Origin: an uncultured Aliarcobacter sp.
Lineage (GTDB): Bacteria > Campylobacterota > Campylobacteria > Campylobacterales > Arcobacteraceae
Length of the DNA: 64,000 nt
NCBI GenBank assembly: GCA_963664305.2
Contig: CAXXLV010000002.1
Span: forward strand, 608,001 to 672,000
Reading direction: 5' to 3'
The notes under the pieces are model-generated. The model was not told the DNA's origin. It searched no databases and saw only the letters and a program-made list of their open reading frames with translations. Shown one piece after another: positions 14,658 through 31,445 of the stretch; position 1 is the first letter of the stretch; each line of letters opens with the position of its first letter. The translations under genes and the position numbers were made by a program.

Positions 14658-15509
14658 CTAAGCGTAATTAAATATAGAAGAATTTGAGTTTGAAAGGTTT
14701 TTAACGTAACTATTTAGTTCACTATTATTAGTTTGATTATTCATCATTTGCATAATATTTTTAAAGTTACTTAAATCTAAATTCTCTGAAGGATTTGAAC
14801 TATTAGATTTTATAGTATCAAGTAATAATTTTACAGTATCTTTTATAGTTGAATTATCAGCTGTTTCATTAGATATTCCTAATGCAGCATTTTTTTCTTC
14901 TTGAGATACAATACCATCTTTATTAGTATCAAGTTCATCATATTCTTCTTCATCAGTTGACGCTGCTGAACCACCACTTCCTCCACCTTTAGGTGGTGGC
15001 ATTGATGCTACAGATTCAGAAGAAGAGCTATTAGTTACTTGATTATATGCACTTGTTAACTCGTCTGTTGAAATTGAACCATCACTATCAGTATCTAATG
15101 CAGAAAACTCTTCATCACTTAAGATTGAAACTTCACTTGCACTAAGTAATGAATCACCATCACTATCATAACTTGACATTATCATAGAACTAAACTCATT
15201 TGCTTGTTGACTAGTTGGTGGTTCAGGCATTTGAAGGCCTAATTCAGATATTAAACTTTCAAATTCTTCTTTTGAAGGCATTTCTCCATCAAAAGAAGAT
15301 AATTTACTATCTATTGCACTTGCAATTTCATTTTGAGTAACTAGTCCATCACCATCACTATCAAGTGTAGAAAACTGTTCTTCACTAACACCTAATTCAT
15401 CAATACTCAAAGATGAATCAGAATTAGTATCACTATTTTTAACTATGTCTTTTGAAATATTACTTATAGGAGACATCATACCTATAGAACTATACGAAGA
15501 AATTGTCAT
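14658..15509 (-). CDS. Acidic multi-EF-hand (putative Ca2+-binding) protein with no Sec signal peptide
   Basis: EF-hand loops DTNSDSSLSIDE, DSDGDGLVTQNE, DSDGDSLLSASE, DTDSDGSISTDE and DTNKDGIVSQEE; Pro/Gly linkers. Confidence 0.88.
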   Translation of the reverse strand: MTISSYSSIGMMSPISNISKDIVKNSDTNSDSSLSIDELGVSEEQFSTLDSDGDGLVTQNEIASAIDSKLSSFDGEMPSKEEFESLISELGLQMPEPPTSQQANEFSSMIMSSYDSDGDSLLSASEVSILSDEEFSALDTDSDGSISTDELTSAYNQVTNSSSSESVASMPPPKGGGSGGSAASTDEEEYDELDTNKDGIVSQEEKNAALGISNETADNSTIKDTVKLLLDTIKSNSSNPSENLDLSNFKNIMQMMNNQTNNSELNSYVKNLSNSNSSIFNYA

Positions 15510-15529: not shown

Positions 15530-15560
15530 ATCCTATTCTTTTAAAGTAAATAATGGGTAA
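15530..15560 (-). promoter_or_regulatory. Promoter of the EF-hand gene with TTAC direct repeat
   Basis: Minus strand reads TTAC-CCATTAT-TTAC-N10-TAGGAT. Confidence 0.7.
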
Positions 15561-15568
15561 CAAAATTA

Positions 15569-16906
15569 TTAAGAATCACTAGAACCTTCAATAATTAATT
15601 TTAAAGATGAAAATGCTGTTTCCATTTGCGTAATCAATACCGTATATTCTGCAAATTGTGTAGACATCTGTTCATATTTTTCATCTAATTTATCAGAAGC
15701 TGTTTCATAATCTTCATTTAATGAGTCAATTTTGTCGTTTAATTTATCTTCATAAGTCGTAAAAAGTCCATCTAAGGAATCTAATGAATCTAAATAAGTT
15801 TTCAATTTTGTTCCAATACCTTCTTTTTCTGCATAACCAACAAATAATTCTTTTAAATCATCATAATTATCACTGACAGCTTCTGTTAATTCTGTAGAAT
15901 CAACATTTAAATAACCATCTGTATCAAAAGATATTCCATATTTAAACAGACTCTCTTCATTATCTAATCCATAACTTCCAAATAAAATCTCTTTTATACT
16001 ATTCATCATTGATTTTAAAGTACTTGAATCAGAAATTATTGCTGGGTCATCTTCATCACCCAAAATATAAGAATTTACTAAATCAACTAAATCATTGTAT
16101 TTATCAGCTACATCTTCAATTGTTGATACTAATGTACTAGTATCTCTTTCCATAGTAATTGAAGAATCACCAGTTGTAGTAGCAGTTATTATTAAACCAT
16201 TAGCCATTGTTACTTTATTTGATGAAACATCATAAGAAATACCATCAATTGTTGCTTGCATATTTTGTGCTGTTAAAACATGACTATCTTCTTCTTCAAA
16301 TCCTAAATCTATATCTGTTTGAGAAATAGAAATTGCATTTGATTCTCCAGTTTCAGCACTTTTTATTACAAGTCTATATGAATCATCACCAACTTGTTCT
16401 AAACTTGCTTCAAAATTTGAGTTATAACCCATTTCAGTTACCAAACTTTCATAAGTTTTTCCATCAGTTGAAAAATCATAACTTGTATCTCCAACAGTAA
16501 TAGTTATTGTTCCTGAATCCATTGTAGCTGTTGTATCTGAAATTGTATTTGATTGATATACATCTTTTTGTGCTAATTGACTAACACTAACACTAATTGT
16601 CCCCGGAGTTAATTTACTTGAATCAGTTGCATCAAAAGTTACAGAATCACCTGATGTTGTTGCACTTATTTCATCAAACACATTAGTTCCACTTGTATAT
16701 AAATCAAAATCGTCAACTAAATCAAGTAGTTCTAAAACCATAGTTTCAATTTCAGTTAATGCATCTAATTCAGCTTGTGTATCATCAATTTCATCAGTAA
16801 TTGGGTCTAGAATAGATGTACTTTCTGCTGTTTTTAATTTAGTAATTAAATCTGAACTTAAATCTACACTTCCTGAAGTTCCGAGTCCTAAAATTCCATC
16901 TGCCAT
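15569..16906 (-). CDS. fliD: Flagellar filament cap FliD-like protein
   Basis: LGLG...LITKLKTAE N-terminus, VSQLAQKDVYQS, C-terminal KYEQMSTQFAEY. Confidence 0.88.
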   Translation of the reverse strand: MADGILGLGTSGSVDLSSDLITKLKTAESTSILDPITDEIDDTQAELDALTEIETMVLELLDLVDDFDLYTSGTNVFDEISATTSGDSVTFDATDSSKLTPGTISVSVSQLAQKDVYQSNTISDTTATMDSGTITITVGDTSYDFSTDGKTYESLVTEMGYNSNFEASLEQVGDDSYRLVIKSAETGESNAISISQTDIDLGFEEEDSHVLTAQNMQATIDGISYDVSSNKVTMANGLIITATTTGDSSITMERDTSTLVSTIEDVADKYNDLVDLVNSYILGDEDDPAIISDSSTLKSMMNSIKEILFGSYGLDNEESLFKYGISFDTDGYLNVDSTELTEAVSDNYDDLKELFVGYAEKEGIGTKLKTYLDSLDSLDGLFTTYEDKLNDKIDSLNEDYETASDKLDEKYEQMSTQFAEYTVLITQMETAFSSLKLIIEGSSDS

Positions 16907-16916
16907 TTTATATCCT

Positions 16917-18515
16917 TTACATTGCTAATAGCGTTTGAAGCATTTCATCAACTGCAGTTATCACCTTTGCATTTGCTTCATATGCTGCTTGAAATTGAAG
17001 AAGATTTATCATCTCCTCATCTGAATCTACTTTTGTAAGATTGTTATATGTTGTTTCCAAAGAATTTACTATCGTATTTTGAGATTCTAATTTAAAGTTA
17101 TTATTTTCTACGTTTGAAGAAACTGTAACTAATAAGTTTTGATAAAACTCACTAAATGAAGTATTTGAAGTTGAACCAATAGTTAAATTTGTTGCCCACT
17201 GAATTTCAGATAGGTTTTCTAAGTCATTACTGGTTAAAGAGCTTACATTATCAGAAATAAAATTTAATGTATCAACATTTGAACCAGTAAATAGAGGCGT
17301 ATTACTACTTGAATTAACTAAATCAATTAATGCACTTGCAAATTCATCTAAACTATCTTTATATGAATATATATTTGAAGTTGAAGTTGTAAGCTCTTGG
17401 GTTATAGCCTTTAAAGAACCACTTGTTAGAGATAAACCATTATTATAAACAGCTAATGAAACATTATTTTCAGCTTCAACAGAAGTTGCACTTTTTGATA
17501 TTTCACTACTATTTACAGAAATAGCAATATCAAAAGCCCCCTCTTCTCCTTCAATATTTGATTTAATAATTAAATTATTACTTGAATCAAGATACGCGTT
17601 GTAATTTGAAAAATTTGAGTTTGAATTAATTGCATCAATAATTTGCTGTTTTAATTCATTTTCATCTGTTCCACTAACATTTGCACTTAATGTTAATGAT
17701 GTAGTATTATTTAAAGAAATAGTAATTTCATCTCCATCACTAAAGTTACTATCATCTAAAGAAGATGAAGTATAAATATCTTTTTGTGCAATATTTTCTT
17801 CATTTATACTTACTTCATGTAAATTTGTATCATTAAAAATTACATTTACTCCTGCAATTTTTAGGTTATAAGTATCACTATCTCTATTGATTTCTATATC
17901 AACATAATTTGATAACTCTTTTTCTAAAGCATCTCTTTTATCAAGTAAATCATTTGTTTCACCACTTTGTTGCATCTGTTTATTAAGATAGACTATCTGT
18001 TCTAAAATATCATTTACACTATCAACTTGATCTTGTAATTGTGTATTTAAACTCTCTAAGGTATCATCTAAATCACTGTTTAATGATTGTAAATTATTTA
18101 CTAATAATTGAGATTGAGTTGATAATTCATTTTGATAAATTAAGTTTGTAGGTTCTTCTCTTAATGATTCAATTGAATTAAAAAAGTTACTTAACGTTGT
18201 TGAAAAACCACTACTATCAGCTTCATCAAACATTATTTCAATACTACTTAATATAGTGTCTTCTTGTTCATAATATGAAGCTAAACTACTTTGCGCAACC
18301 AATTTATCATATAAATAACTATTTGTTGTTCTAGTAACTCCATCAAATGATACTCCATTCCCAATATTATCTTCTAAGCTATTTAATTCAGAAGTATTAA
18401 CAACTCTTTTTACATAACCATCTGTATTTTCATTTGCAATATTATTAGAAGTTACATCAACAGAATATTTTGAGGCATCAAGACCACTTTTTGCGATGTA
18501 TAAAGAATTTATCAT
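16917..18515 (-). CDS. flgK: Hook-filament junction FlgK-like protein
   Basis: SNNIANENTDGY, NDLLDKRD and VDSDEEMINLLQFQAAYEANAKVI motifs. Confidence 0.92.
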   Translation of the reverse strand: MINSLYIAKSGLDASKYSVDVTSNNIANENTDGYVKRVVNTSELNSLEDNIGNGVSFDGVTRTTNSYLYDKLVAQSSLASYYEQEDTILSSIEIMFDEADSSGFSTTLSNFFNSIESLREEPTNLIYQNELSTQSQLLVNNLQSLNSDLDDTLESLNTQLQDQVDSVNDILEQIVYLNKQMQQSGETNDLLDKRDALEKELSNYVDIEINRDSDTYNLKIAGVNVIFNDTNLHEVSINEENIAQKDIYTSSSLDDSNFSDGDEITISLNNTTSLTLSANVSGTDENELKQQIIDAINSNSNFSNYNAYLDSSNNLIIKSNIEGEEGAFDIAISVNSSEISKSATSVEAENNVSLAVYNNGLSLTSGSLKAITQELTTSTSNIYSYKDSLDEFASALIDLVNSSSNTPLFTGSNVDTLNFISDNVSSLTSNDLENLSEIQWATNLTIGSTSNTSFSEFYQNLLVTVSSNVENNNFKLESQNTIVNSLETTYNNLTKVDSDEEMINLLQFQAAYEANAKVITAVDEMLQTLLAM

Positions 18516-18524
18516 AATAAACTC

Positions 18525-18905
18525 CTAATAGATTCTTTTTACATCAACAAAATCAATAAAAGTTACAGTATCATCTAAAATATATTTTTTTTCTAAAGCA
18601 TCTATTCCTAGAACTTCATGACAAACTAAATATATTTTATTATCTTTTGTTGTTTGAATTGAACTAACATTAAATTGTCTAAAACCTCTTTCACCATTTC
18701 TTAATCTACCATCTTCAACAACTCTGTCAATAATATTTACAATATTTGTCATAGTTAATAAATTCATTGATTTTTGTAATTGAATTACCATTGATTCTAA
18801 ATTATCAAAATTTGTATTTTGATAATTATTCATAAAATAGCTATAACACTCAATTACTTGTGATTCTAGTCCTTTTATATCCATAATATTATTTTTCATT
18901 TTCAA
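18525..18905 (-). CDS. Hypothetical protein within the flagellar-homolog operon
   Basis: 126-aa ORF tightly packed between flgL and flgK, AAGGA SD. Confidence 0.75.
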   Translation of the reverse strand: MKMKNNIMDIKGLESQVIECYSYFMNNYQNTNFDNLESMVIQLQKSMNLLTMTNIVNIIDRVVEDGRLRNGERGFRQFNVSSIQTTKDNKIYLVCHEVLGIDALEKKYILDDTVTFIDFVDVKRIY

Positions 18906-18912
18906 TCCTTTT

Positions 18913-20046
18913 TTAACTTAAATATTTAACTAATGACAAGTTATTTACTTTGTTGATAGTTGAGTATAAAGCTGTATATGTATTTTCTAAAGCTTGAGAT
19001 TCAACAGCAAGTGCAGTTAAATCTGCTGCACCAACTGTTTCTTGTAAAATGCTAAAGTTTGTTAATTTTGTTTGAACAATTGATTCATAGTTTTCAATTG
19101 AAGCAGTTCTTATTCCAAGTTTTGCATGAGCTAAATTTACACTATCGTAAATATCTCCAATTTTATCAACGTAACTTGATAAAATAGAATCTGCTTCATC
19201 TTCAGTTATTGAATTACCATTAGAATCTTGTTGTTTTAACGCATTTATAACTTCATCTAAATCATCAAAAACTGAGTGTTTTGATGTTAAAGAAGTTGTT
19301 CCAGTGTTAGTAGTTGTAAAAGTTCCATCTCCATTATCTGTAATTGATAGAGCTGTTTGTGAACTATCCCCATTTAAATATAATCCATTATAAACACCAT
19401 CATTATCAGTATCTAATAATTTATATTGATTACCATCTTTATCTAGAATAATTTCATTTTCTTCAAATGTTAAATTTTCACCAGTTTGTGCTGTTTGATT
19501 TGTATAATATAGAAGCTCAATACCATTTAATCCTTGATTATTATAAGTATTTGTTTCAACATTAATTGTTTTATTGTCATTTGTTGATACATAAGAAATT
19601 CTTCCAGTTGTTTCATCTTTTACAAAAGGTTGTGTTGTTACACTATTTCCAGAAAAAAGGTATTGATTACTTGCACTACTATTTGCAAGCGAGTATATAT
19701 AATCTTTAATAGATTCTAATTCATTTGCAATAGTTTCTTTATTATCACTATCAGTTGTATCTGTAGATGCTTTTAAAATCAAAGATTGAGCTGATTCAAG
19801 AGATGTTTTTATACTTGAAACGGCTGTATCACTTGTCGTATTAAATGAATTAGATGATTGAATTCTATCTAAGATTGAACTATAAGAATTAACACTATTA
19901 TTTATTGATAATAATTGATTATACTTTGAAGAATCATCGCTACCATATTGTAAAGCTTCATTACTACTTAATCCATAAGTTACTTTTTCATTTCTACTAT
20001 TTAATAGACTTAAATTGTACATAATAGTATTTATTGAACTAACCAT
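18913..20046 (-). CDS. flgL: Hook-filament junction FlgL-like protein
   Basis: LANS...YLFSG motif; flagellin-C-like end ADLT...NNLSLVKYL. Confidence 0.85.
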   Translation of the reverse strand: MVSSINTIMYNLSLLNSRNEKVTYGLSSNEALQYGSDDSSKYNQLLSINNSVNSYSSILDRIQSSNSFNTTSDTAVSSIKTSLESAQSLILKASTDTTDSDNKETIANELESIKDYIYSLANSSASNQYLFSGNSVTTQPFVKDETTGRISYVSTNDNKTINVETNTYNNQGLNGIELLYYTNQTAQTGENLTFEENEIILDKDGNQYKLLDTDNDGVYNGLYLNGDSSQTALSITDNGDGTFTTTNTGTTSLTSKHSVFDDLDEVINALKQQDSNGNSITEDEADSILSSYVDKIGDIYDSVNLAHAKLGIRTASIENYESIVQTKLTNFSILQETVGAADLTALAVESQALENTYTALYSTINKVNNLSLVKYLS

Positions 20047-20059
20047 AATAAACTCCTAA

Positions 20060-22030
20060 TTATCTTTTTAGACCTATTAATGTTGTTAGAATTTCATCTG
20101 CTGTGGTAATAGATTTTGCATTTGCTTCAAAAGCTCTTTGAAATACCATCAAATTAACTAAACTCTCACTCAAATCTGCTGTACTTAATTCTAAAGTTTC
20201 ACTTTCAACTGATACACCATTATTATTATTTACTGCATAGATTGGATTTCCACTCTCTTTAGTTGCAGCTAATAGATTATTTCCTATTGACTCTAATCCT
20301 ATATTGTTTGTAAATTGAGCAATTGCAACTTGTCCGATAACAAAATCAACTCCGTCTTGAGTCATAGTTATTATTCCACTATCATCAACTGAAAATTCTC
20401 CAAAAGATGAATCAGTTAATCCTAAAGAGCTTAGATTTAATTGTAAAGAAGACAAAGAAGTTGTTTGATTTACAGTTGAAATAATTTGCATAAATTCTGC
20501 ATTAGCACCACTATTTCCACTTGCATCTTGATTTCTTTCTTTTGTATAAACAGTTCCACCATCATCAAACTCAATTACACCCGAGAATTCTTCTCCAGGA
20601 TTTTTTGCTTCAATAACTAACATTCCATTTATTGTTTTTGCTTCAACTTGAGTTTGTAAATCTGCATCTGTATTTATTTTTGAAATCAAATCTTGAATAG
20701 CACTATTGTAATCTGTAAGAGTGTTATCACTTGTTACTGTAACACCATTTAAAGTAAAAGATATTGTATCTCCAACATCGAAACTTAAAATATTTCCATT
20801 ATCATCGCTAATAATATCTGCAGCTTCATATACATCTTGTTGAGTACCAGCTACTGCATCTCTTAGTGCTTCCATTGCACTTTTAACTGCTGCTTCACCA
20901 GTTCCTTCAACAGCATTTGTTAGAGTTGTTTTTGTTCCAACTTGTTCTGTTGTTCCTGAAACTTCAGCTAAATCACCAAGTGTAAATGATGTTCCTGGAA
21001 TTATTGAATCTATTTTTATTGCACCATTTAAAACATCAACATTTGAGGTACTTGCACTATTTGTTGAATCAACTGTATAAGCTTTTAATCCAGTAATTTT
21101 TGAAATTTCATCAGCTAAAGATTTATATGTTGCTACCCTACTTGCAAGTACATTATATTCTTCATCAGTTGTTACACCAGATGTTGTAATCCCTGCTGCA
21201 TCCATTTCTGCTTTAAATGAATCTGTTGCCGTAGTAGTTACATAATTTTGTGTAATTTTATTTCCATCAACATATACGTAAATTTGATCACTTTCACTAT
21301 CTAATAAACTTGTTCCTGTATTTGGATAATCTATTAGTGTTGTTTGAGCTATTGATGTACTACTTGACTCTTCTGGATTTTCAGCATAACTTTCTAAAGC
21401 TTTATTATAATTAGTAATTAATGCTTCAATATCAGAGATTTTTGCAGATTGTGTCTTTATTCCTGAACCTGAAAGTTCAGTTGAGTCACTTTTAGCACTG
21501 GTAGTATAATCAGACATTTTTGCAGCATAAGTTTGGATTTTATTTGAAAATTGAATTACTTGATTTCCTGCAATTTCACTAAAAGCATCAGTAAAATATG
21601 TTAGATTTGAATTTGTAGAAGTAATATCAGATGATGGATCAATTGTACTAATTGCCCATCCTTGAACTTCATTTCCAGAAGCATCTTGTAAAGTTCCATT
21701 TTCTCCCATTCTAAAATTTCCAGCTCTTGTATAGTAATTTTCAGATGTTCCACTAAAGTTTTTATTTGATACAACAAAAAAACCATCTCCATCAAGTGCT
21801 AAATCATAAGATGAACCCGTTAAATTTAAACTTCCTTGTGTATATTGTTTTTCTGCATTTGTAACAGATGAACCTTTTCCTATACTGTCTTGATACATCA
21901 AATCAGCAAAAGAAACTCTTGATGCTTTATATCCAACAGTATTTACGTTTGCAATATTATTTGACTCATTATCTAAAGCTGTTTGCTGAGAAGAAAGTCC
22001 TGCAATTCCAGTCCATAATGCACTAATCAT
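20060..22030 (-). CDS. flgE: Flagellar hook FlgE-like protein
   Basis: NNIANVNTVGYK, DLALDGDGFF, YYTRAGNF and LELSTADLS...QRAFEANAKSITTAD motifs. Confidence 0.92.
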   Translation of the reverse strand: MISALWTGIAGLSSQQTALDNESNNIANVNTVGYKASRVSFADLMYQDSIGKGSSVTNAEKQYTQGSLNLTGSSYDLALDGDGFFVVSNKNFSGTSENYYTRAGNFRMGENGTLQDASGNEVQGWAISTIDPSSDITSTNSNLTYFTDAFSEIAGNQVIQFSNKIQTYAAKMSDYTTSAKSDSTELSGSGIKTQSAKISDIEALITNYNKALESYAENPEESSSTSIAQTTLIDYPNTGTSLLDSESDQIYVYVDGNKITQNYVTTTATDSFKAEMDAAGITTSGVTTDEEYNVLASRVATYKSLADEISKITGLKAYTVDSTNSASTSNVDVLNGAIKIDSIIPGTSFTLGDLAEVSGTTEQVGTKTTLTNAVEGTGEAAVKSAMEALRDAVAGTQQDVYEAADIISDDNGNILSFDVGDTISFTLNGVTVTSDNTLTDYNSAIQDLISKINTDADLQTQVEAKTINGMLVIEAKNPGEEFSGVIEFDDGGTVYTKERNQDASGNSGANAEFMQIISTVNQTTSLSSLQLNLSSLGLTDSSFGEFSVDDSGIITMTQDGVDFVIGQVAIAQFTNNIGLESIGNNLLAATKESGNPIYAVNNNNGVSVESETLELSTADLSESLVNLMVFQRAFEANAKSITTADEILTTLIGLKR

Positions 22031-22069
22031 TTTTAATCCTTTATAATTAATAGTGATTCCACTTATTTA

Positions 22070-22100
22070 ATCATAAAGGTTTAGGGTAAATTTAGGGTAT
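22070..22100 (-). promoter_or_regulatory. Promoter of the flgE-flgL-orf-flgK-fliD operon with direct repeat
   Basis: Minus strand reads ATAC-CCTAAAT-TTAC-N10-TATGAT (plus strand TTAGGGTA twice, 11-bp period). Confidence 0.72.
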
Positions 22101-22145
22101 CTAGAAAATAAATAGTTTTAATAATTTACTAACCGTTGGTAACAG

Positions 22146-22898
22146 TTAGTAAATTTTGGTAATATTATTGTAAGAAATAGTTTTTGCTTCAGTATCATAA
22201 GCTGTTGCCGTATCTTCTGTATATGCAAGTGCTAAGTTACTTTGTGAAATAGATGAAGAACCATTACTAACAGAAACAACTAATTGATAATTTCCACTTG
22301 TATTTTGAACTACACTTGCAGTCATTCCTGATGTTTGCGAAATTTCTGTTGCTAATTCATCATAAGTTTTATTATAAGTTGAATATGTATAGCTATTTCC
22401 ATCACTATTTGTTAACGTAATTGAGCTATCTTCATTTGTTGAATCAACAACATCTGAACCACTCGATACTTCATCAAAATAATATACATCATAATAACCA
22501 GATAATTCATAAGCAGTTAAAGTAATTTCTCCATCATTCATGGATACTGAGGAAATTCTATATTGTTTATTATTACCTTCATCATCTGTATCCCCATTTT
22601 CTACGATATTTCCAATTAATGATGCAGAACTAGAAAGTGCTGATTGTTCAAAAGTTGATTGTAAAGCTTCCATTGCTTCTACTGTAGCTGTACTTGCTTC
22701 TAAATTTGATAATTGAAGTTGAGTATCAAGCATTGTTGAAGAATCAACTGCACTTGTTGGATCTTGAAGTTTTAATTGTGTTAGCATCAATGTAATAAAA
22801 TCAGAACTTTCTAATTGATCATTACTAACTGCTGAAGTGACTGTATTACCATAAGCATCTAATGATGAGCTTGTTGTTATCGAACTTGTAGTTGACAT
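22146..22898 (-). CDS. flgD: Hook capping protein FlgD-like
   Basis: DFITLMLTQLKLQDP and QLQLSNLE motifs. Confidence 0.9.
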   Translation of the reverse strand: MSTTSSITTSSSLDAYGNTVTSAVSNDQLESSDFITLMLTQLKLQDPTSAVDSSTMLDTQLQLSNLEASTATVEAMEALQSTFEQSALSSSASLIGNIVENGDTDDEGNNKQYRISSVSMNDGEITLTAYELSGYYDVYYFDEVSSGSDVVDSTNEDSSITLTNSDGNSYTYSTYNKTYDELATEISQTSGMTASVVQNTSGNYQLVVSVSNGSSSISQSNLALAYTEDTATAYDTEAKTISYNNITKIY

Positions 22899-22928
22899 AT
22901 TATACTCCTTAATGGTATAGAATAAAAA

Positions 22929-22980
22929 ATTCTAACTATATGGAGTAAATATAGGGTATTAAAGAGTAAATAAAAGGTAA
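22929..22980 (-). promoter_or_regulatory. Promoter of flgD with four phased TAC half-sites
   Basis: Minus strand reads TTACCTTTTATTTACTCTTTAATACCCTATATTTAC-N10-TAGAAT; spacings 11/10/11 bp. Confidence 0.72.
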
Positions 22981-24303
22981 CTAGTTATTAATATTGATAT
23001 AAAAATGATGATAACCATCAATATATTTATATTCAAGTTTATAATTATGAATTTTGATAATATTATTTGAAATATAAAGCCCAAGCCCTAAACCACTTGT
23101 TGCAGTTTCATAGTCATGATTAAATGGTTTATAATATTCTTCAATATCTTTTGTTAGTTTTTCTCCTTTGTTAATTATTTCTATTGAATTTTCTTCAATG
23201 ATGATTTTAGGTTCTTCTTCTAAACTATATCTTATTGCATTATCAATTAAATTTTTTATAGCAATAGAAAATAGTTCAAAATCTGCATTAATTTTTAAAT
23301 CAGCTTTATCTTCTATTTCAATAGAATGTTCATCTAATAACAAAATATCAAAAGATTGATCAACTAATTCAATGATATGATATTCATTTTTATTTAGAGT
23401 AATTTTGCCAGAAGTTAATTCTTCTATTTTTGCAAACTCACTTAATAAATATTCTAGTCTTTGAAAGACCCTAATTAATATATATTTTCTTTCACTATCT
23501 TCATAAAAATCTGTAATTAATTTACCTTTTGTAATAGGTGTTTTTAATTCATGCATTATGTTTCTTAAAAAAAGATTTCTTGAATCTCTCAACTCTTTTA
23601 GCTGTTTTAATGCATTTGAAAATTCTCTTGTAAGTTCAGAAATTTCATCTTTCCCATTTATTTTTGTAGTGATTTTGAAGCTTCCTTTTGATAGATTAAT
23701 CATATCTTCTTTTAAACTAAGAAGAGGTCTTAATTTTTTTCTAATAAATAGGAAAAACCAAATTAATGAAATATTAACTACACTTAAAACAACTAACCAA
23801 AAATACTTAAACTCATTCTCTTTTAATTCATCAATTAATAATATTTCATGTGGCTTAGGTCTTAATTTAAAAAAAATAGGTTCTTCAAATCTTTCAAATA
23901 GTGGTTTTTCTGGTGGAGGAGGCATTTTTCTAAAATCAGGAAATTTAGGATTAAAATGTATATATTTAACACCATTTAACATATACGTATCAATTGGAGC
24001 TTCATCATCTATTTTTATTTTTTTATAATTTGATGTTAATAAATCTTCAAAACTTTTCTCAGATAATCTCATATCAAATACTGAGATTTTATCATTTATC
24101 TCTTGTAATGATGCATTCTTCATATTTAAATCTTCTACAATTCTAACTGTTGACATATATCTTTTTACTTCTAATAAAGAGTAAGTTTTACTATCTACAA
24201 TAAATTGTATAGTTATAATAATATTAATAATTAAGAAAATAGAAAAGAAAAAAAGTTTAATTTGAAAAAATATAGAATCTTTTTTATTGATTAACCAATT
24301 TAT
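22981..24303 (-). CDS. Membrane sensor histidine kinase (ArsS/RacS-like: HAMP, HisKA, HATPase); start probably non-canonical
   Basis: MHELKTP, NLIDNA and GLGLGLYI motifs. The frame stays open upstream of ATG 24156 through the first TM helix (KKDSIFFQIKLFFFSIFLIINIII); ATA at 24303 follows AGAGGAG. Confidence 0.88.
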   Translation of the reverse strand: MNWLINKKDSIFFQIKLFFFSIFLIINIIITIQFIVDSKTYSLLEVKRYMSTVRIVEDLNMKNASLQEINDKISVFDMRLSEKSFEDLLTSNYKKIKIDDEAPIDTYMLNGVKYIHFNPKFPDFRKMPPPPEKPLFERFEEPIFFKLRPKPHEILLIDELKENEFKYFWLVVLSVVNISLIWFFLFIRKKLRPLLSLKEDMINLSKGSFKITTKINGKDEISELTREFSNALKQLKELRDSRNLFLRNIMHELKTPITKGKLITDFYEDSERKYILIRVFQRLEYLLSEFAKIEELTSGKITLNKNEYHIIELVDQSFDILLLDEHSIEIEDKADLKINADFELFSIAIKNLIDNAIRYSLEEEPKIIIEENSIEIINKGEKLTKDIEEYYKPFNHDYETATSGLGLGLYISNNIIKIHNYKLEYKYIDGYHHFYININN

Positions 24304-24970
24304 AACCTACTCCTCTAATTGATAATATATATTTTGGTTTTTTTGTGTCTTCTTCTATTTTTGCTCTAACTCGACCAATTAAAACATCAATACTTTTATA
24401 TGAGCTTTCATATTTTATAGAATCAACATTAGAAAGTAATTCTTCTCTTGAAACAACAAAACCACCTTTTTGAATCATATATTGAAGTATAAAATACTCA
24501 GCATTTGTTAAATCAAGAAGTTCTTCATCTTTATATATTTCCATTTTAGATTCATCAAAAGTAAATATTTGTTTTTTATTTAAAGGAGATTCTTTTTCAA
24601 TAATTTGATGATTACATCTTTTTAAAATAGATTTTATTCTAAGTATTAATTCTTGTGTATCATATGGTTTTGGCATAAAATCATCAGCTCCATAAGAAAA
24701 ACAAGCAATTTTATCACCTAAATATGACCTTGCAGAAGAAATTATAATTGGTAAATCAAATTTTTGTCTAATTATTCTACAAACTTCTATGCCATCAATA
24801 TTTGGCAATGATAAATCTAATATTACTAAATCATATTTTTTTAAAGAAAGTGCAGATATTCCAAGCTCTGGAGTATCATAATTTGTAACAATTATGTTAT
24901 ATTGGCTTAGATATTCAGTTAAAATTCTAGCTAGTTCTGTATCATCTTCAATCATTAAAATATTAATCAA
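24284..24970 (-). CDS. OmpR-family response regulator
   Basis: Receiver domain (IEDD, LDLSLP, KPY) and winged-helix domain (SIDVLIGRVRAKI, IRGVGY). Confidence 0.95.
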   Translation of the reverse strand: MINILMIEDDTELARILTEYLSQYNIIVTNYDTPELGISALSLKKYDLVILDLSLPNIDGIEVCRIIRQKFDLPIIISSARSYLGDKIACFSYGADDFMPKPYDTQELILRIKSILKRCNHQIIEKESPLNKKQIFTFDESKMEIYKDEELLDLTNAEYFILQYMIQKGGFVVSREELLSNVDSIKYESSYKSIDVLIGRVRAKIEEDTKKPKYILSIRGVGYKLVNQ

Positions 24971-24996
24971 ATTTTTACTCCTTATTTACTTTTTGA

Positions 24997-25027
24997 ATTA
25001 TAGTATATCAATGTAAATAAAAAGTAA
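24997..25027 (-). promoter_or_regulatory. Promoter of the two-component operon with direct repeat (possible autoregulation)
   Basis: Minus strand reads TTAC-TTTTTAT-TTAC-N10-TATAAT. Confidence 0.72.
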
Positions 25028-25034
25028 CAATTTG

Positions 25035-30641: not shown

Positions 30642-31445
30642 ATGGATGTAAATGCAATAAATAATAATTCTATATCAAGTTTAAACACTTCATCATCTTC
30701 TTCTTTACAACTAGAAAAAACCTCTCAAAGTGGTAGGATTAATAATTCTGAAAAAGATGCATTAAGTTTAAGTATCAGTGATTATAATAAACAAAGAGAT
30801 GAACTTTCTTTAAATATTCAATCATTTAATGATGGAATTGCAATATCAAAAATAGCTCAAAATGGAATATCAAAACAACAAGAATATTTAAGTAATGTTC
30901 AAGATAAACTTCAAAATATTAATAATTTACAAAATAAAAATGATATAAAACAAAGTATCAATGAAGATTTAAGAAATTTTAATCAAACTGCATATGAAAC
31001 AAAATATAAAAATGATAATTTATTAGTTCAAAATTATTATGATGACAAATCAACTATTGATATAAATACAAGTACTGGAAATTTTTCTGTTGAAAAAACA
31101 AATACTGCAACTTTCGCAAATGATATTTTTGAAACAGTAAATAATAGTGATTTAAATAATCCAGAAAACGTTTCAAATGCTTTAAATAAAGTTTCAACAG
31201 CATCATCTCAATTAAACGGATTATCTGAACAATTTTCACAATTTAGTAAACAATTAGAAGAAAAAGCATTAGAAAATATAAAAGAGCAAAATAATTTATA
31301 TAAAGAAAATCAAATGAATAAACCAAAAGATTTTGGTAGAGAATCAACTGATTTTTCAAAAGCAAATATTAATGCAAATGCAGGATATTTAGCAGCTTCT
31401 CAAGCAAATATCGTTCAAGCACAAAGTGTAAAAGTTATAGGTTAA
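30642..31445 (+). CDS. Short divergent flagellin-like protein (FlaC-like)
   Basis: Flagellin-N-like RIN...D...LSI...NDGI and C-like DFGRES..FSKANI...ASQAN. Confidence 0.75.
   Translation: MDVNAINNNSISSLNTSSSSSLQLEKTSQSGRINNSEKDALSLSISDYNKQRDELSLNIQSFNDGIAISKIAQNGISKQQEYLSNVQDKLQNINNLQNKNDIKQSINEDLRNFNQTAYETKYKNDNLLVQNYYDDKSTIDINTSTGNFSVEKTNTATFANDIFETVNNSDLNNPENVSNALNKVSTASSQLNGLSEQFSQFSKQLEEKALENIKEQNNLYKENQMNKPKDFGRESTDFSKANINANAGYLAASQANIVQAQSVKVIG

Follow-up and report, generated by a model that had tools for sequence, protein, structure and literature searches.

The window considered here is the whole of a 64,000-nucleotide stretch of DNA from an uncultured Aliarcobacter sp. of the family Arcobacteraceae (GenBank assembly GCA_963664305.2, contig CAXXLV010000002.1, positions 608,001 to 672,000), and our subject is a module on its minus strand in which four promoters share one box, two half-sites with an 11-bp period set 10 bp before the -10 hexamer. 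Between ftsK and hpf, the module runs in the order RR1 (an OmpR/PhoB-family response regulator, RR), its sensor kinase, flgD, flgE, flgL, an open reading frame (ORF) of 126 aa, flgK, fliD, and a gene for an acidic EF-hand protein. We suggest, with a probability of roughly 0.8, that the adjacent OmpR-family RR1 reads this box and that its phosphorylated dimer activates its own operon, flgD, the flgE-flgL-flgK-fliD genes, and the EF-hand gene.

All four sites have ATTTAC as the proximal half-site, and the distal half-site is TGTTAC (twice), AGATAC, or TAATAC. Box 1 (24997..25029), before the RR gene, consists of TGTTAC (25029-25024), ATTTAC (25018-25013), 10 bp, and TATAAT (25002-24997), and is likely to be an autoregulatory site of the RR. 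Box 2 (22929..22982), before flgD, has TAATAC (22961-22956), ATTTAC (22950-22945), and, after 10 bp, TAGAAT (22934-22929), with an extra upstream pair GTTAC/ATTTAC (22981-22966). Box 3 (22070..22102), before flgE, is made of AGATAC (22102-22097), ATTTAC (22091-22086), and, 10 bp further on, TATGAT (22075-22070), and Box 4 (15530..15562), before the EF-hand gene, of TGTTAC (15562-15557), ATTTAC (15551-15546), 10 bp, and TAGGAT (15535-15530). The minus-strand strings that a sequence-only reading of the window had placed at 25027-24997, 22959-22929 (with an upstream pair at 22980-22966), 22100-22070, and 15560-15530 all lie where it put them, and the 11-bp period and the 10 bp to the -10 hexamer that it reported are exact at every site. 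A position weight matrix (PWM), built from 23 sites in 16 relatives whose RR-EF locus was free of flagellar genes over the stretch retrieved, places the four module sites at ranks 1, 2, 4, and 8 across both strands of the genome (Box 4, 32.2; Box 1, 30.9; Box 2, 18.6; Box 3, 14.9); because its training sites were picked by a pattern seeded with the spacing of that reading, which counts against our interpretation, the ranking tests the letters of the box and not its spacing. A PWM score of 12 or more is reached by 10 of the 2507 genes of this genome.

The pattern WTAC-N7-TTAC-N10-TAnRAT, which was fitted after the fact to its four module sites, has 4 matches in the 2.78-Mb genome, all inside the module, and in the window the 4 matches compare with 0.04 expected (100 dinucleotide shuffles, maximum 1). 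When the last hexamer is relaxed to TAnnAT, 6 matches are found in this genome, and 145 of the 151 family genomes contain the relaxed form, at about 4-5 matches per genome; reversed-pattern controls are similar in size, so the loose form alone is not diagnostic. As to whether the motif stands above the background, a doubt that the sequence-only reading had itself raised, the tight form is thus confined to the module genome-wide, but the loose form is about as frequent as its reversed control. It is extremely unlikely that the pattern is mere chance or the ordinary AT-rich periodicity of Campylobacterota RpoD promoters. The fitting after the fact and the abundance of the loose form would agree with such an origin, as would the mild enrichment of TTTAC-N10-TAnnAT in intergenic DNA (17 vs 3-15 at other spacings), but among the 23 intergenic TTTAC-N10-TAnnnT sites of the genome only the four module sites carry (G/A)(T/A)TAC exactly 11 bp upstream, and the box letters are conserved with the genes across genera while the spacers vary. 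Because the tight pattern was fitted to its own sites and the loose form is common, the case rests on conservation in orthologous promoters.

Of 150 family genomes, 33 yielded an ortholog of RR1; these orthologs form one clade in a quick tree, and together with the window they give 34 loci for comparison. The box precedes the RR gene in 31 of these 34 loci, the three boxless orthologs sitting 14-37 bp behind another ORF, and it precedes the EF-hand gene in 24/24, including genera without flagellar genes at the locus; the fuller consensus across relatives is TG(T/A)TAC-N5-RTTTAC-N10-TAnnAT. At the 18 loci outside the training set, a score of at least 12 is found before RR in 18/18, EF in 11/11, flgD in 12/18, and flgE in 7/16, the last being made up of 7/12 loci of genomes that also hold a housekeeping set (two-set loci) and 0/4 loci where the module set is the only one (sole-set loci). 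The control genes at loci outside the training set do not reach this score: flgL, flgK, and fliD in 0/16 each, hpf in 0/17, and der in 0/14. When half-site pairs are counted without a fixed spacing, an 11-bp peak appears before RR (29), EF (24), flgD (21), and flgE (9, beside 7 pairs at 9-bp spacing), and no pair with 11-bp spacing occurs before the control genes. The tight pattern has at least one match in 33/33 RR1-positive relatives and in 39/117 others, with the reversed control matching in 22/151 genomes; in these counts kin are not independent, and most matches lie at the RR locus itself. The box also tracks genes that have moved, such as the relocated EF-hand gene of G085, and in G072 and G023 a degenerate box stands before a flagellar operon that is divergent and reshuffled.

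In 17 of the 34 loci (one of them split over two contigs), the kinase is followed by flagellar genes, as in the window. Among the others, a flgD remnant is left in one, the set lies reshuffled and divergent upstream in two, and the remainder hold the RR-kinase pair, for the most part accompanied by the EF-hand gene only. These distributions suggest that the core regulon is the RR-kinase pair with the EF-hand gene, and that some lineages have added the flagellar genes to it. Among 285 genomes of the class from outside the family, a single one has an EF-like match; it adjoins an efflux operon and an RR-kinase pair, and GTTAC repeats occur there at a distance of 10 bp. An RND pump, an adaptor, and a TolC-like gene also adjoin the RR or EF-hand gene in eight loci (L040, L045, L048, L050, L052, L059, L112, and L117). 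RND efflux genes were considered as regulon members and set aside, having no consistent box.

RR1 (24284..24970, minus strand, 228 aa) has Pfam Response_reg (PF00072) and Trans_reg_C (PF00486) domains above cut-off, intact receiver motifs (acidic pocket, Asp, Ser, and Lys), and the recognition helix KSIDVLIGR. Behind it lies a predicted sensor kinase of 436 aa (22981..24291, minus strand) of the ArsS family (NF038389, 340.8 bits, cut-off 250), with H-box, N-box, and G-box. Its start appears to be an ATC (24291-24289) that overlaps the RR stop, and the first ATG (24156) lies after the first hydrophobic helix. In the 34 loci compared, many orthologs have an ATG overlapping the RR stop and others an ATC, ACG, or ACC, which suggests a tolerated non-canonical, translationally coupled start. 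The periplasmic part of the kinase is a short, proline-rich, hypervariable loop, deleted in one ortholog, and no periplasmic histidine is invariant in the kinase alignment. With its patchy occurrence in only 33/150 genomes, RR1 is probably not essential.

The earlier proposal that the box is the binding site of the local RR is supported by its travelling together with the RR and EF-hand genes, by its PhoB-like geometry, and by the OmpR family of the RR. The Arcobacteraceae hold at least four ArsR-like paralog clades in the quick tree, RR1 being one of them, and the question is which of these proteins is the reader. Within this genome RR1 is probably the best reader: among 17 homologs of its DNA-binding domain, the next best recognition helix matches at 8/15 positions. 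Five genomes (G032, G078, G075, G011, and G119) with near-perfect boxes and RR1 have no ortholog of an htrA-linked paralog or of a sister clade called RR4, and RR1 is the likely reader because, in these five strong-box genomes, it is the only close paralog whose recognition helix is of this kind. It is very unlikely that the box is instead read mainly by another ArsR-like paralog, either the htrA-linked CprR-like regulator (C1:515117) or one of RR4 type, which would place the module in a wider envelope-stress regulon. The htrA-linked helix, KNIDVIISR, does resemble that of RR1, and a box precedes htrA in G033. However, htrA promoters stay below a score of 12 in 30/30 cases. They carry a conserved 11-bp array of their own (TTAAC, TTAAC, TTGGA or TTGAA, and GTTTAC; C1:513560-513662 of this genome, G000, L161; L250-L279), which is likely to be the box of the htrA-linked regulator. 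The RR4 clade (L119:5490-6870; L124-L140), with a helix almost identical to that of RR1, occurs in 17/150 genomes and was not found in this one. Often the gene ahead of it is acidic, Ser-rich, and proline-containing and has a TTTAC repeat with a 10-bp period, and the system may represent a parallel regulon of the same design. A Spy-linked paralog has a different helix, and GTTAA-type repeats precede the Spy-like operon; at C2:1494800-1494870 of this genome, repeated TCGTTAA units upstream of a Spy-like gene and an ArsR-like pair look like a third paralog-specific box.

Several observations weigh against RR1 as sole reader and against the extent of its regulon. In the htrA promoter, a GTTTAC proximal half-site stands 10 bp ahead of a -10-like hexamer. 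Of the 10 genomes in which a second EF-hand subfamily was found without RR1 (the absence of RR1 being checked with all candidates scored in G074 and G116 only), 9 show an 11-bp TTTAC repeat before the gene of this subfamily, at the same distance. RR4 is present in 8 of these 10, and two, G070 and G093, have neither RR1 nor RR4. Because a similar box precedes this second subfamily where RR1 is lacking, the sister paralog can probably read the box too; RR4's own promoter has a 10-bp period. The flgD and flgE boxes are weaker, falling below threshold in 6/18 and 9/16 loci. Moreover, the box can outlast its regulator, since G108 (L074) and G121 (L075) keep the RR box after ftsK although the module is deleted. 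In G108 the surviving box is followed by the ribosome site and the first RR codons and then by unrelated genes, and the same genome keeps a box before a candidate fifth target, described below. Finally, phosphorylated ArsR of Helicobacter pylori represses its own operon (PMC9449129), which bears on the sign of regulation at Box 1.

With regard to the polymerase involved, the sequence-only reading had proposed a sigma70-type regulon rather than a sigma54/sigma28 flagellar cascade. The first half of this is supported, as neither sigma54-type (GG-N10-GC) nor sigma28-type (TAAA-N15-CGAT) sites were found in any of the upstream regions of seven module genes that were scanned. The second half needs correction: the box fronts only the duplicate distal set, and the cascade is not replaced. 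The sole Sigma70_r2 match in the genome is RpoD-sized, FliA was not found with that query, and RpoN is present about 3 kb from a NifH-like ORF. The box itself was rejected as a -35 element, as neither half-site is 17 bp from the -10, and a consensus promoter scan was uninformative (85 matches vs 78 expected); among the scan matches listed, no -35 is called at the three target -10 elements. Four sequencing runs, being contigs assembled from mixed communities or of unclear kind, show cover over all 30 bins but carry no strand, level, or 5' ends, and were set aside as evidence on expression and start sites.

As the mechanism, we propose that the ArsS-family kinase phosphorylates RR1 on an extracytoplasmic cue, and that the phosphorylated RR would then bind head-to-tail, with the distal half-site at the -35 position and a gap of 10 bp between the end of the proximal half-site and the -10. 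It would recruit RpoD polymerase in a PhoB-like manner to the weak -10 elements TAGAAT, TATGAT, and TAGGAT, and would boost its own TATAAT promoter. That the RR binds the box but represses, its dimer covering the -35 and the spacer and so blocking RpoD until a signal removes it, is quite improbable. The box does overlap the polymerase footprint, Box 1 has a consensus -10, and the H. pylori precedent just mentioned is of this kind. Activation is nevertheless more likely than repression because the three target -10 elements are off-consensus and, in the scan matches listed, without a -35. A fixed 10-bp distance over many genera also fits contact by an activator better than steric blocking, and PhoB activates with the same geometry.

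This proposed activation by RR1 can be compared with known systems. The Escherichia coli PhoB protein binds 11-nt direct-repeat units head-to-tail (PMC4415409), and the Pho box lies 10 bp upstream of the -10, with activation through sigma70 (PMC1906773); the module box is likewise built of two 11-nt units, 10 bp before the -10. It differs in that its half-site, (G/T)TTAC, is not that of PhoB, RR1 scores 127 against a cut-off of 296 on TIGR02154, and the top PWM matches are module genes, not the phosphate uptake genes of the Pho regulon. The H. pylori ArsRS and Campylobacter jejuni CprRS, RacRS, and DccRS systems share with the module an ArsS-family kinase and an OmpR-type RR co-transcribed with it. 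Of these, H. pylori ArsRS senses acid and its regulator is essential. CprR and DccR bind short repeats of a similar type. ArsR autoregulates (PMC9449129). The module departs from this group in the patchy, probably non-essential RR1 and the hypervariable sensing loop, and in its flagellar structural genes, no such operon being named among the ArsRS targets in the available text of PMC9449129. The Pseudomonas aeruginosa BfmRS-efhP system is likened here by its design: it is autoregulated, its strongest target is a nearby EF-hand gene, and the BfmR box is a TAC-containing tandem (TACAA-N3-GATACA; PMC8025907). It has a 10-bp period, unlike ours, and no flagellar targets are named in the part of that paper on which we draw. 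The enterobacterial RstA box is also a head-to-tail tandem TACA repeat with a GTTAC half-site (PMC4117788), but with a 10-bp period and other targets, and on the RstB model the module kinase reaches 65, the cut-off being 478. The FlgSR-RpoN-FliA cascade of Campylobacter and Helicobacter likewise puts hook and junction genes under two-component control; the module lacks sigma54 and sigma28 sites, and its regulator is of OmpR and not NtrC type. Burkholderia BprRS was dropped as an analog, as the portion of its description available to us records no similar duplicate set.

The boxed genes (RR, flgD, flgE, and EF-hand) are those with intergenic gaps of 59-115 bp, and flgL, the 126-aa ORF, flgK, and fliD have gaps of 7-13 bp, so that flgE is predicted to head a flgE-flgL-ORF-flgK-fliD unit. 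All lie on the minus strand: a second flgD (hook cap, 250 aa, 22146..22898), an additional flgE (hook, 656 aa, 20060..22030), a second flgL (hook-filament junction, 377 aa, 18913..20046), the small ORF (124-126 aa, 18525..18905), a second flgK (junction, 532 aa, 16917..18515, above the TIGR02492 cut-off), and a second fliD (filament cap, 445 aa, 15569..16906). Just upstream of Box 3, where flgD ends, lies a stable hairpin (22123..22155, minus strand; -15.4 kcal/mol, z -4.9), a possible terminator or RNA-stability element. Because a complete housekeeping flagellum is encoded elsewhere in the genome, with its own flgD, two flgE, flgL, flgK, and fliD, the module is a duplicate distal set. No box was found at the housekeeping flagellar genes (0.2 at best among the ORFs of the two main clusters) or before the four flagellin-type genes (5.4 or less), and flagellins were rejected as regulon members. 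RR1 is therefore not the missing master regulator of the flagellum. A divergent flagellin-like ORF of 267 aa (window 30642-31445, plus strand) lies 5.7 kb from the module without a box; a further flagellin-like gene (C2:406470-407297) exists besides the flaA/flaB-type pair; and a motA/motB-like pair sits in the main flagellar cluster (C1:249247-250791 of this genome).

The duplicates are poor in lysine and arginine, with about half as much as the housekeeping set. Their combined content is 2.4% in FlgD (6.6% in the housekeeping copy), 5.0% in FlgE (7.9% and 8.4% in the two housekeeping copies), and 4.1% in FlgK (10.5%), and the net charge of FliD is -15.5 per 100 aa, against -4.7. In aligned columns of duplicate and housekeeping copies, 134 Lys/Arg were lost and 40 gained. 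Across relatives, FlgK has 3.3-6.2% in 12 two-set loci and 7.8-11.2% in 30 housekeeping copies, and FliD 3.1-6.1% in two-set loci and 5.2-11.7% in 29 housekeeping copies, the comparison copies being the 30 best matches. In quick trees (midpoint-rooted for drawing only), the duplicate FlgK and the duplicate FliD each group in a well-supported clade of their own, and when the 1806 ORFs of at least 200 aa are ranked by negative net charge, six module proteins fall within the first 20. Sulfur sparing was rejected as the cause of the bias, as FliD and the EF-hand protein are not low. Side-chain nitrogen is lower in all five duplicates, so nitrogen saving may be a cause, although 36 of the 134 lost Lys/Arg have become Asn or Gln; protease resistance is another possible cause.

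The 126-aa ORF is related to the part of FlgD after the N-terminal export region. Its profile matches FlgD genes (E 1e-6 to 1e-19), and its structural model (pLDDT 79) has two helices and a beta-barrel, with no significant Foldseek match. Identification as a WYL or Sm-like regulator was discarded, as an atlas score of 0.84 and Foldseek E values above 0.02 are not significant and the profile matches FlgD. Strong matches occur in 15 module genomes. The protein may act in the cytoplasm, favouring one hook set over the other.

The EF-hand protein (283 aa, 14658..15509, minus strand) has five EF-hand-like loops and a Ser/Thr-rich N-terminus, and its named homologs are from Arcobacter and Aliarcobacter. 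No hydrophobic signal peptide was detected (maximum 1.0, vs 2.2-2.5 in three secreted controls). From this, and from a Ser/Thr-rich start like that of FlgD, export through the flagellum is predicted. It falls short of the XopAW family (NF041410, 77 bits, cut-off 120) and of lanmodulin (NF053806, 42 bits, cut-off 135), and the listed loops have no proline at position 2. The candidate fifth target, PWM rank 3 at C2:543625 outside the window (C2:543062-543706 of this genome; L160), encodes 187 aa with a Ser/Thr-rich N-terminus and no family match. Its repeat is kept in 5/6 RR1-positive and 1/7 RR1-negative close orthologs, and sits about 21 bp further from the likely -10 than in the module boxes.

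We propose that the EF-hand protein and the hook, junction, and cap subunits of low Lys/Arg content would leave through the single flagellar export apparatus, so that the exposed end of the flagellum is remodelled. An alternative concerns this output and not the box: cells with two sets might mostly release the duplicates, with the EF-hand protein, as acidic, cation-binding decoys, leaving the swimming flagellum as it is. This is consistent with the conserved RR-kinase-EF core without flagellar genes, the absence of a box at flagellins, the extreme acidity of the six module proteins, and the acidic Ser-rich gene that RR4 also heads. We consider it unlikely, as the set is exactly the ordered hook cap, hook, two junctions, and filament cap, and as it is the only such set in some genomes. 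In the closed, single-contig genomes G056, G083, G099, and G120, the module holds the only flgD, flgK, flgL, and fliD, and the genomes also have flhA and flagellins; the main cluster of G056 cleanly lacks the housekeeping flgL and the flgD-flgE block but is otherwise intact. Motility is recorded for a named species to which only such a set is assigned (PMC9321776, tables S8 and S2; PMC4584990), and both strains of A. anaerophilus are listed as motile (PMC4584990). With a sole copy in four genomes and a motile species of this kind, the module set can most likely build a working flagellum.

The sole-set copies nest inside the module clade in quick trees, and the four genomes are close kin that may represent one event. 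In them the flgE promoter has lost its box (scores -5 to -12) and shows a bare TATAAT, as one would expect had conditional control been given up when the genes turned essential; the flgD box stays near consensus, the 126-aa ORF is absent from all four, and the Lys/Arg content is slightly higher. The lone 989-aa FlgE of G120 (L246:4591-7561) is 60% identical to the module FlgE, equally poor in Lys/Arg, and without a box. A second set is listed for A. ellisii and Arcobacter sp. L (PMC9321776, table S8), and the same table lists two motAB sets for these same two species.

The cue would most likely be one that acts on exposed protein charge, either cations or low pH, as the exposed proteins have lost basic residues and a calcium-type EF-hand protein accompanies them; this is the weakest step of the proposal. 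Taken as a whole, the picture is tentative, and we hold it at somewhat short of even odds: in many aquatic Arcobacteraceae, an ArsRS-family system would switch on a spare low-Lys/Arg hook, junction, and cap to be swapped onto the single flagellum, together with a calcium-binding protein exported through it, and a truncated FlgD-like protein would help to sideline the housekeeping hook, the spare set having become the sole one in one lineage. RR1 would then be the first transcriptional regulator identified for the flagellar genes of the family.

The mechanism is that of a standard OmpR/PhoB-type regulon; the regulon is new and its target unusual. The duplicate genes themselves are already listed (PMC9321776, table S8), and no description of the box, the regulator link, or the charge bias was found in the open-access full-text literature, subscription journals being outside that scope. 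The FlgSR-RpoN-FliA regulators are described as lost in Arcobacter, with no DNA-binding regulator near its flagellar loci and control by unknown regulators (PMC9321776, section 7), and the same open question was stated for A. butzleri, which controls its flagellum without FliA, FlgM, and FlgRS (PMC2147049). To this question the module brings a named candidate regulator, exact sites, and four promoters, answering it only in part, since no box stands at the housekeeping genes. The target is a conserved duplicate of the exposed non-flagellin parts only, with basic residues removed and under separate conditional control. If these parts are built into the flagellum, they would amount to a regulated change in the surface chemistry of one organelle, and not to a second flagellar system.

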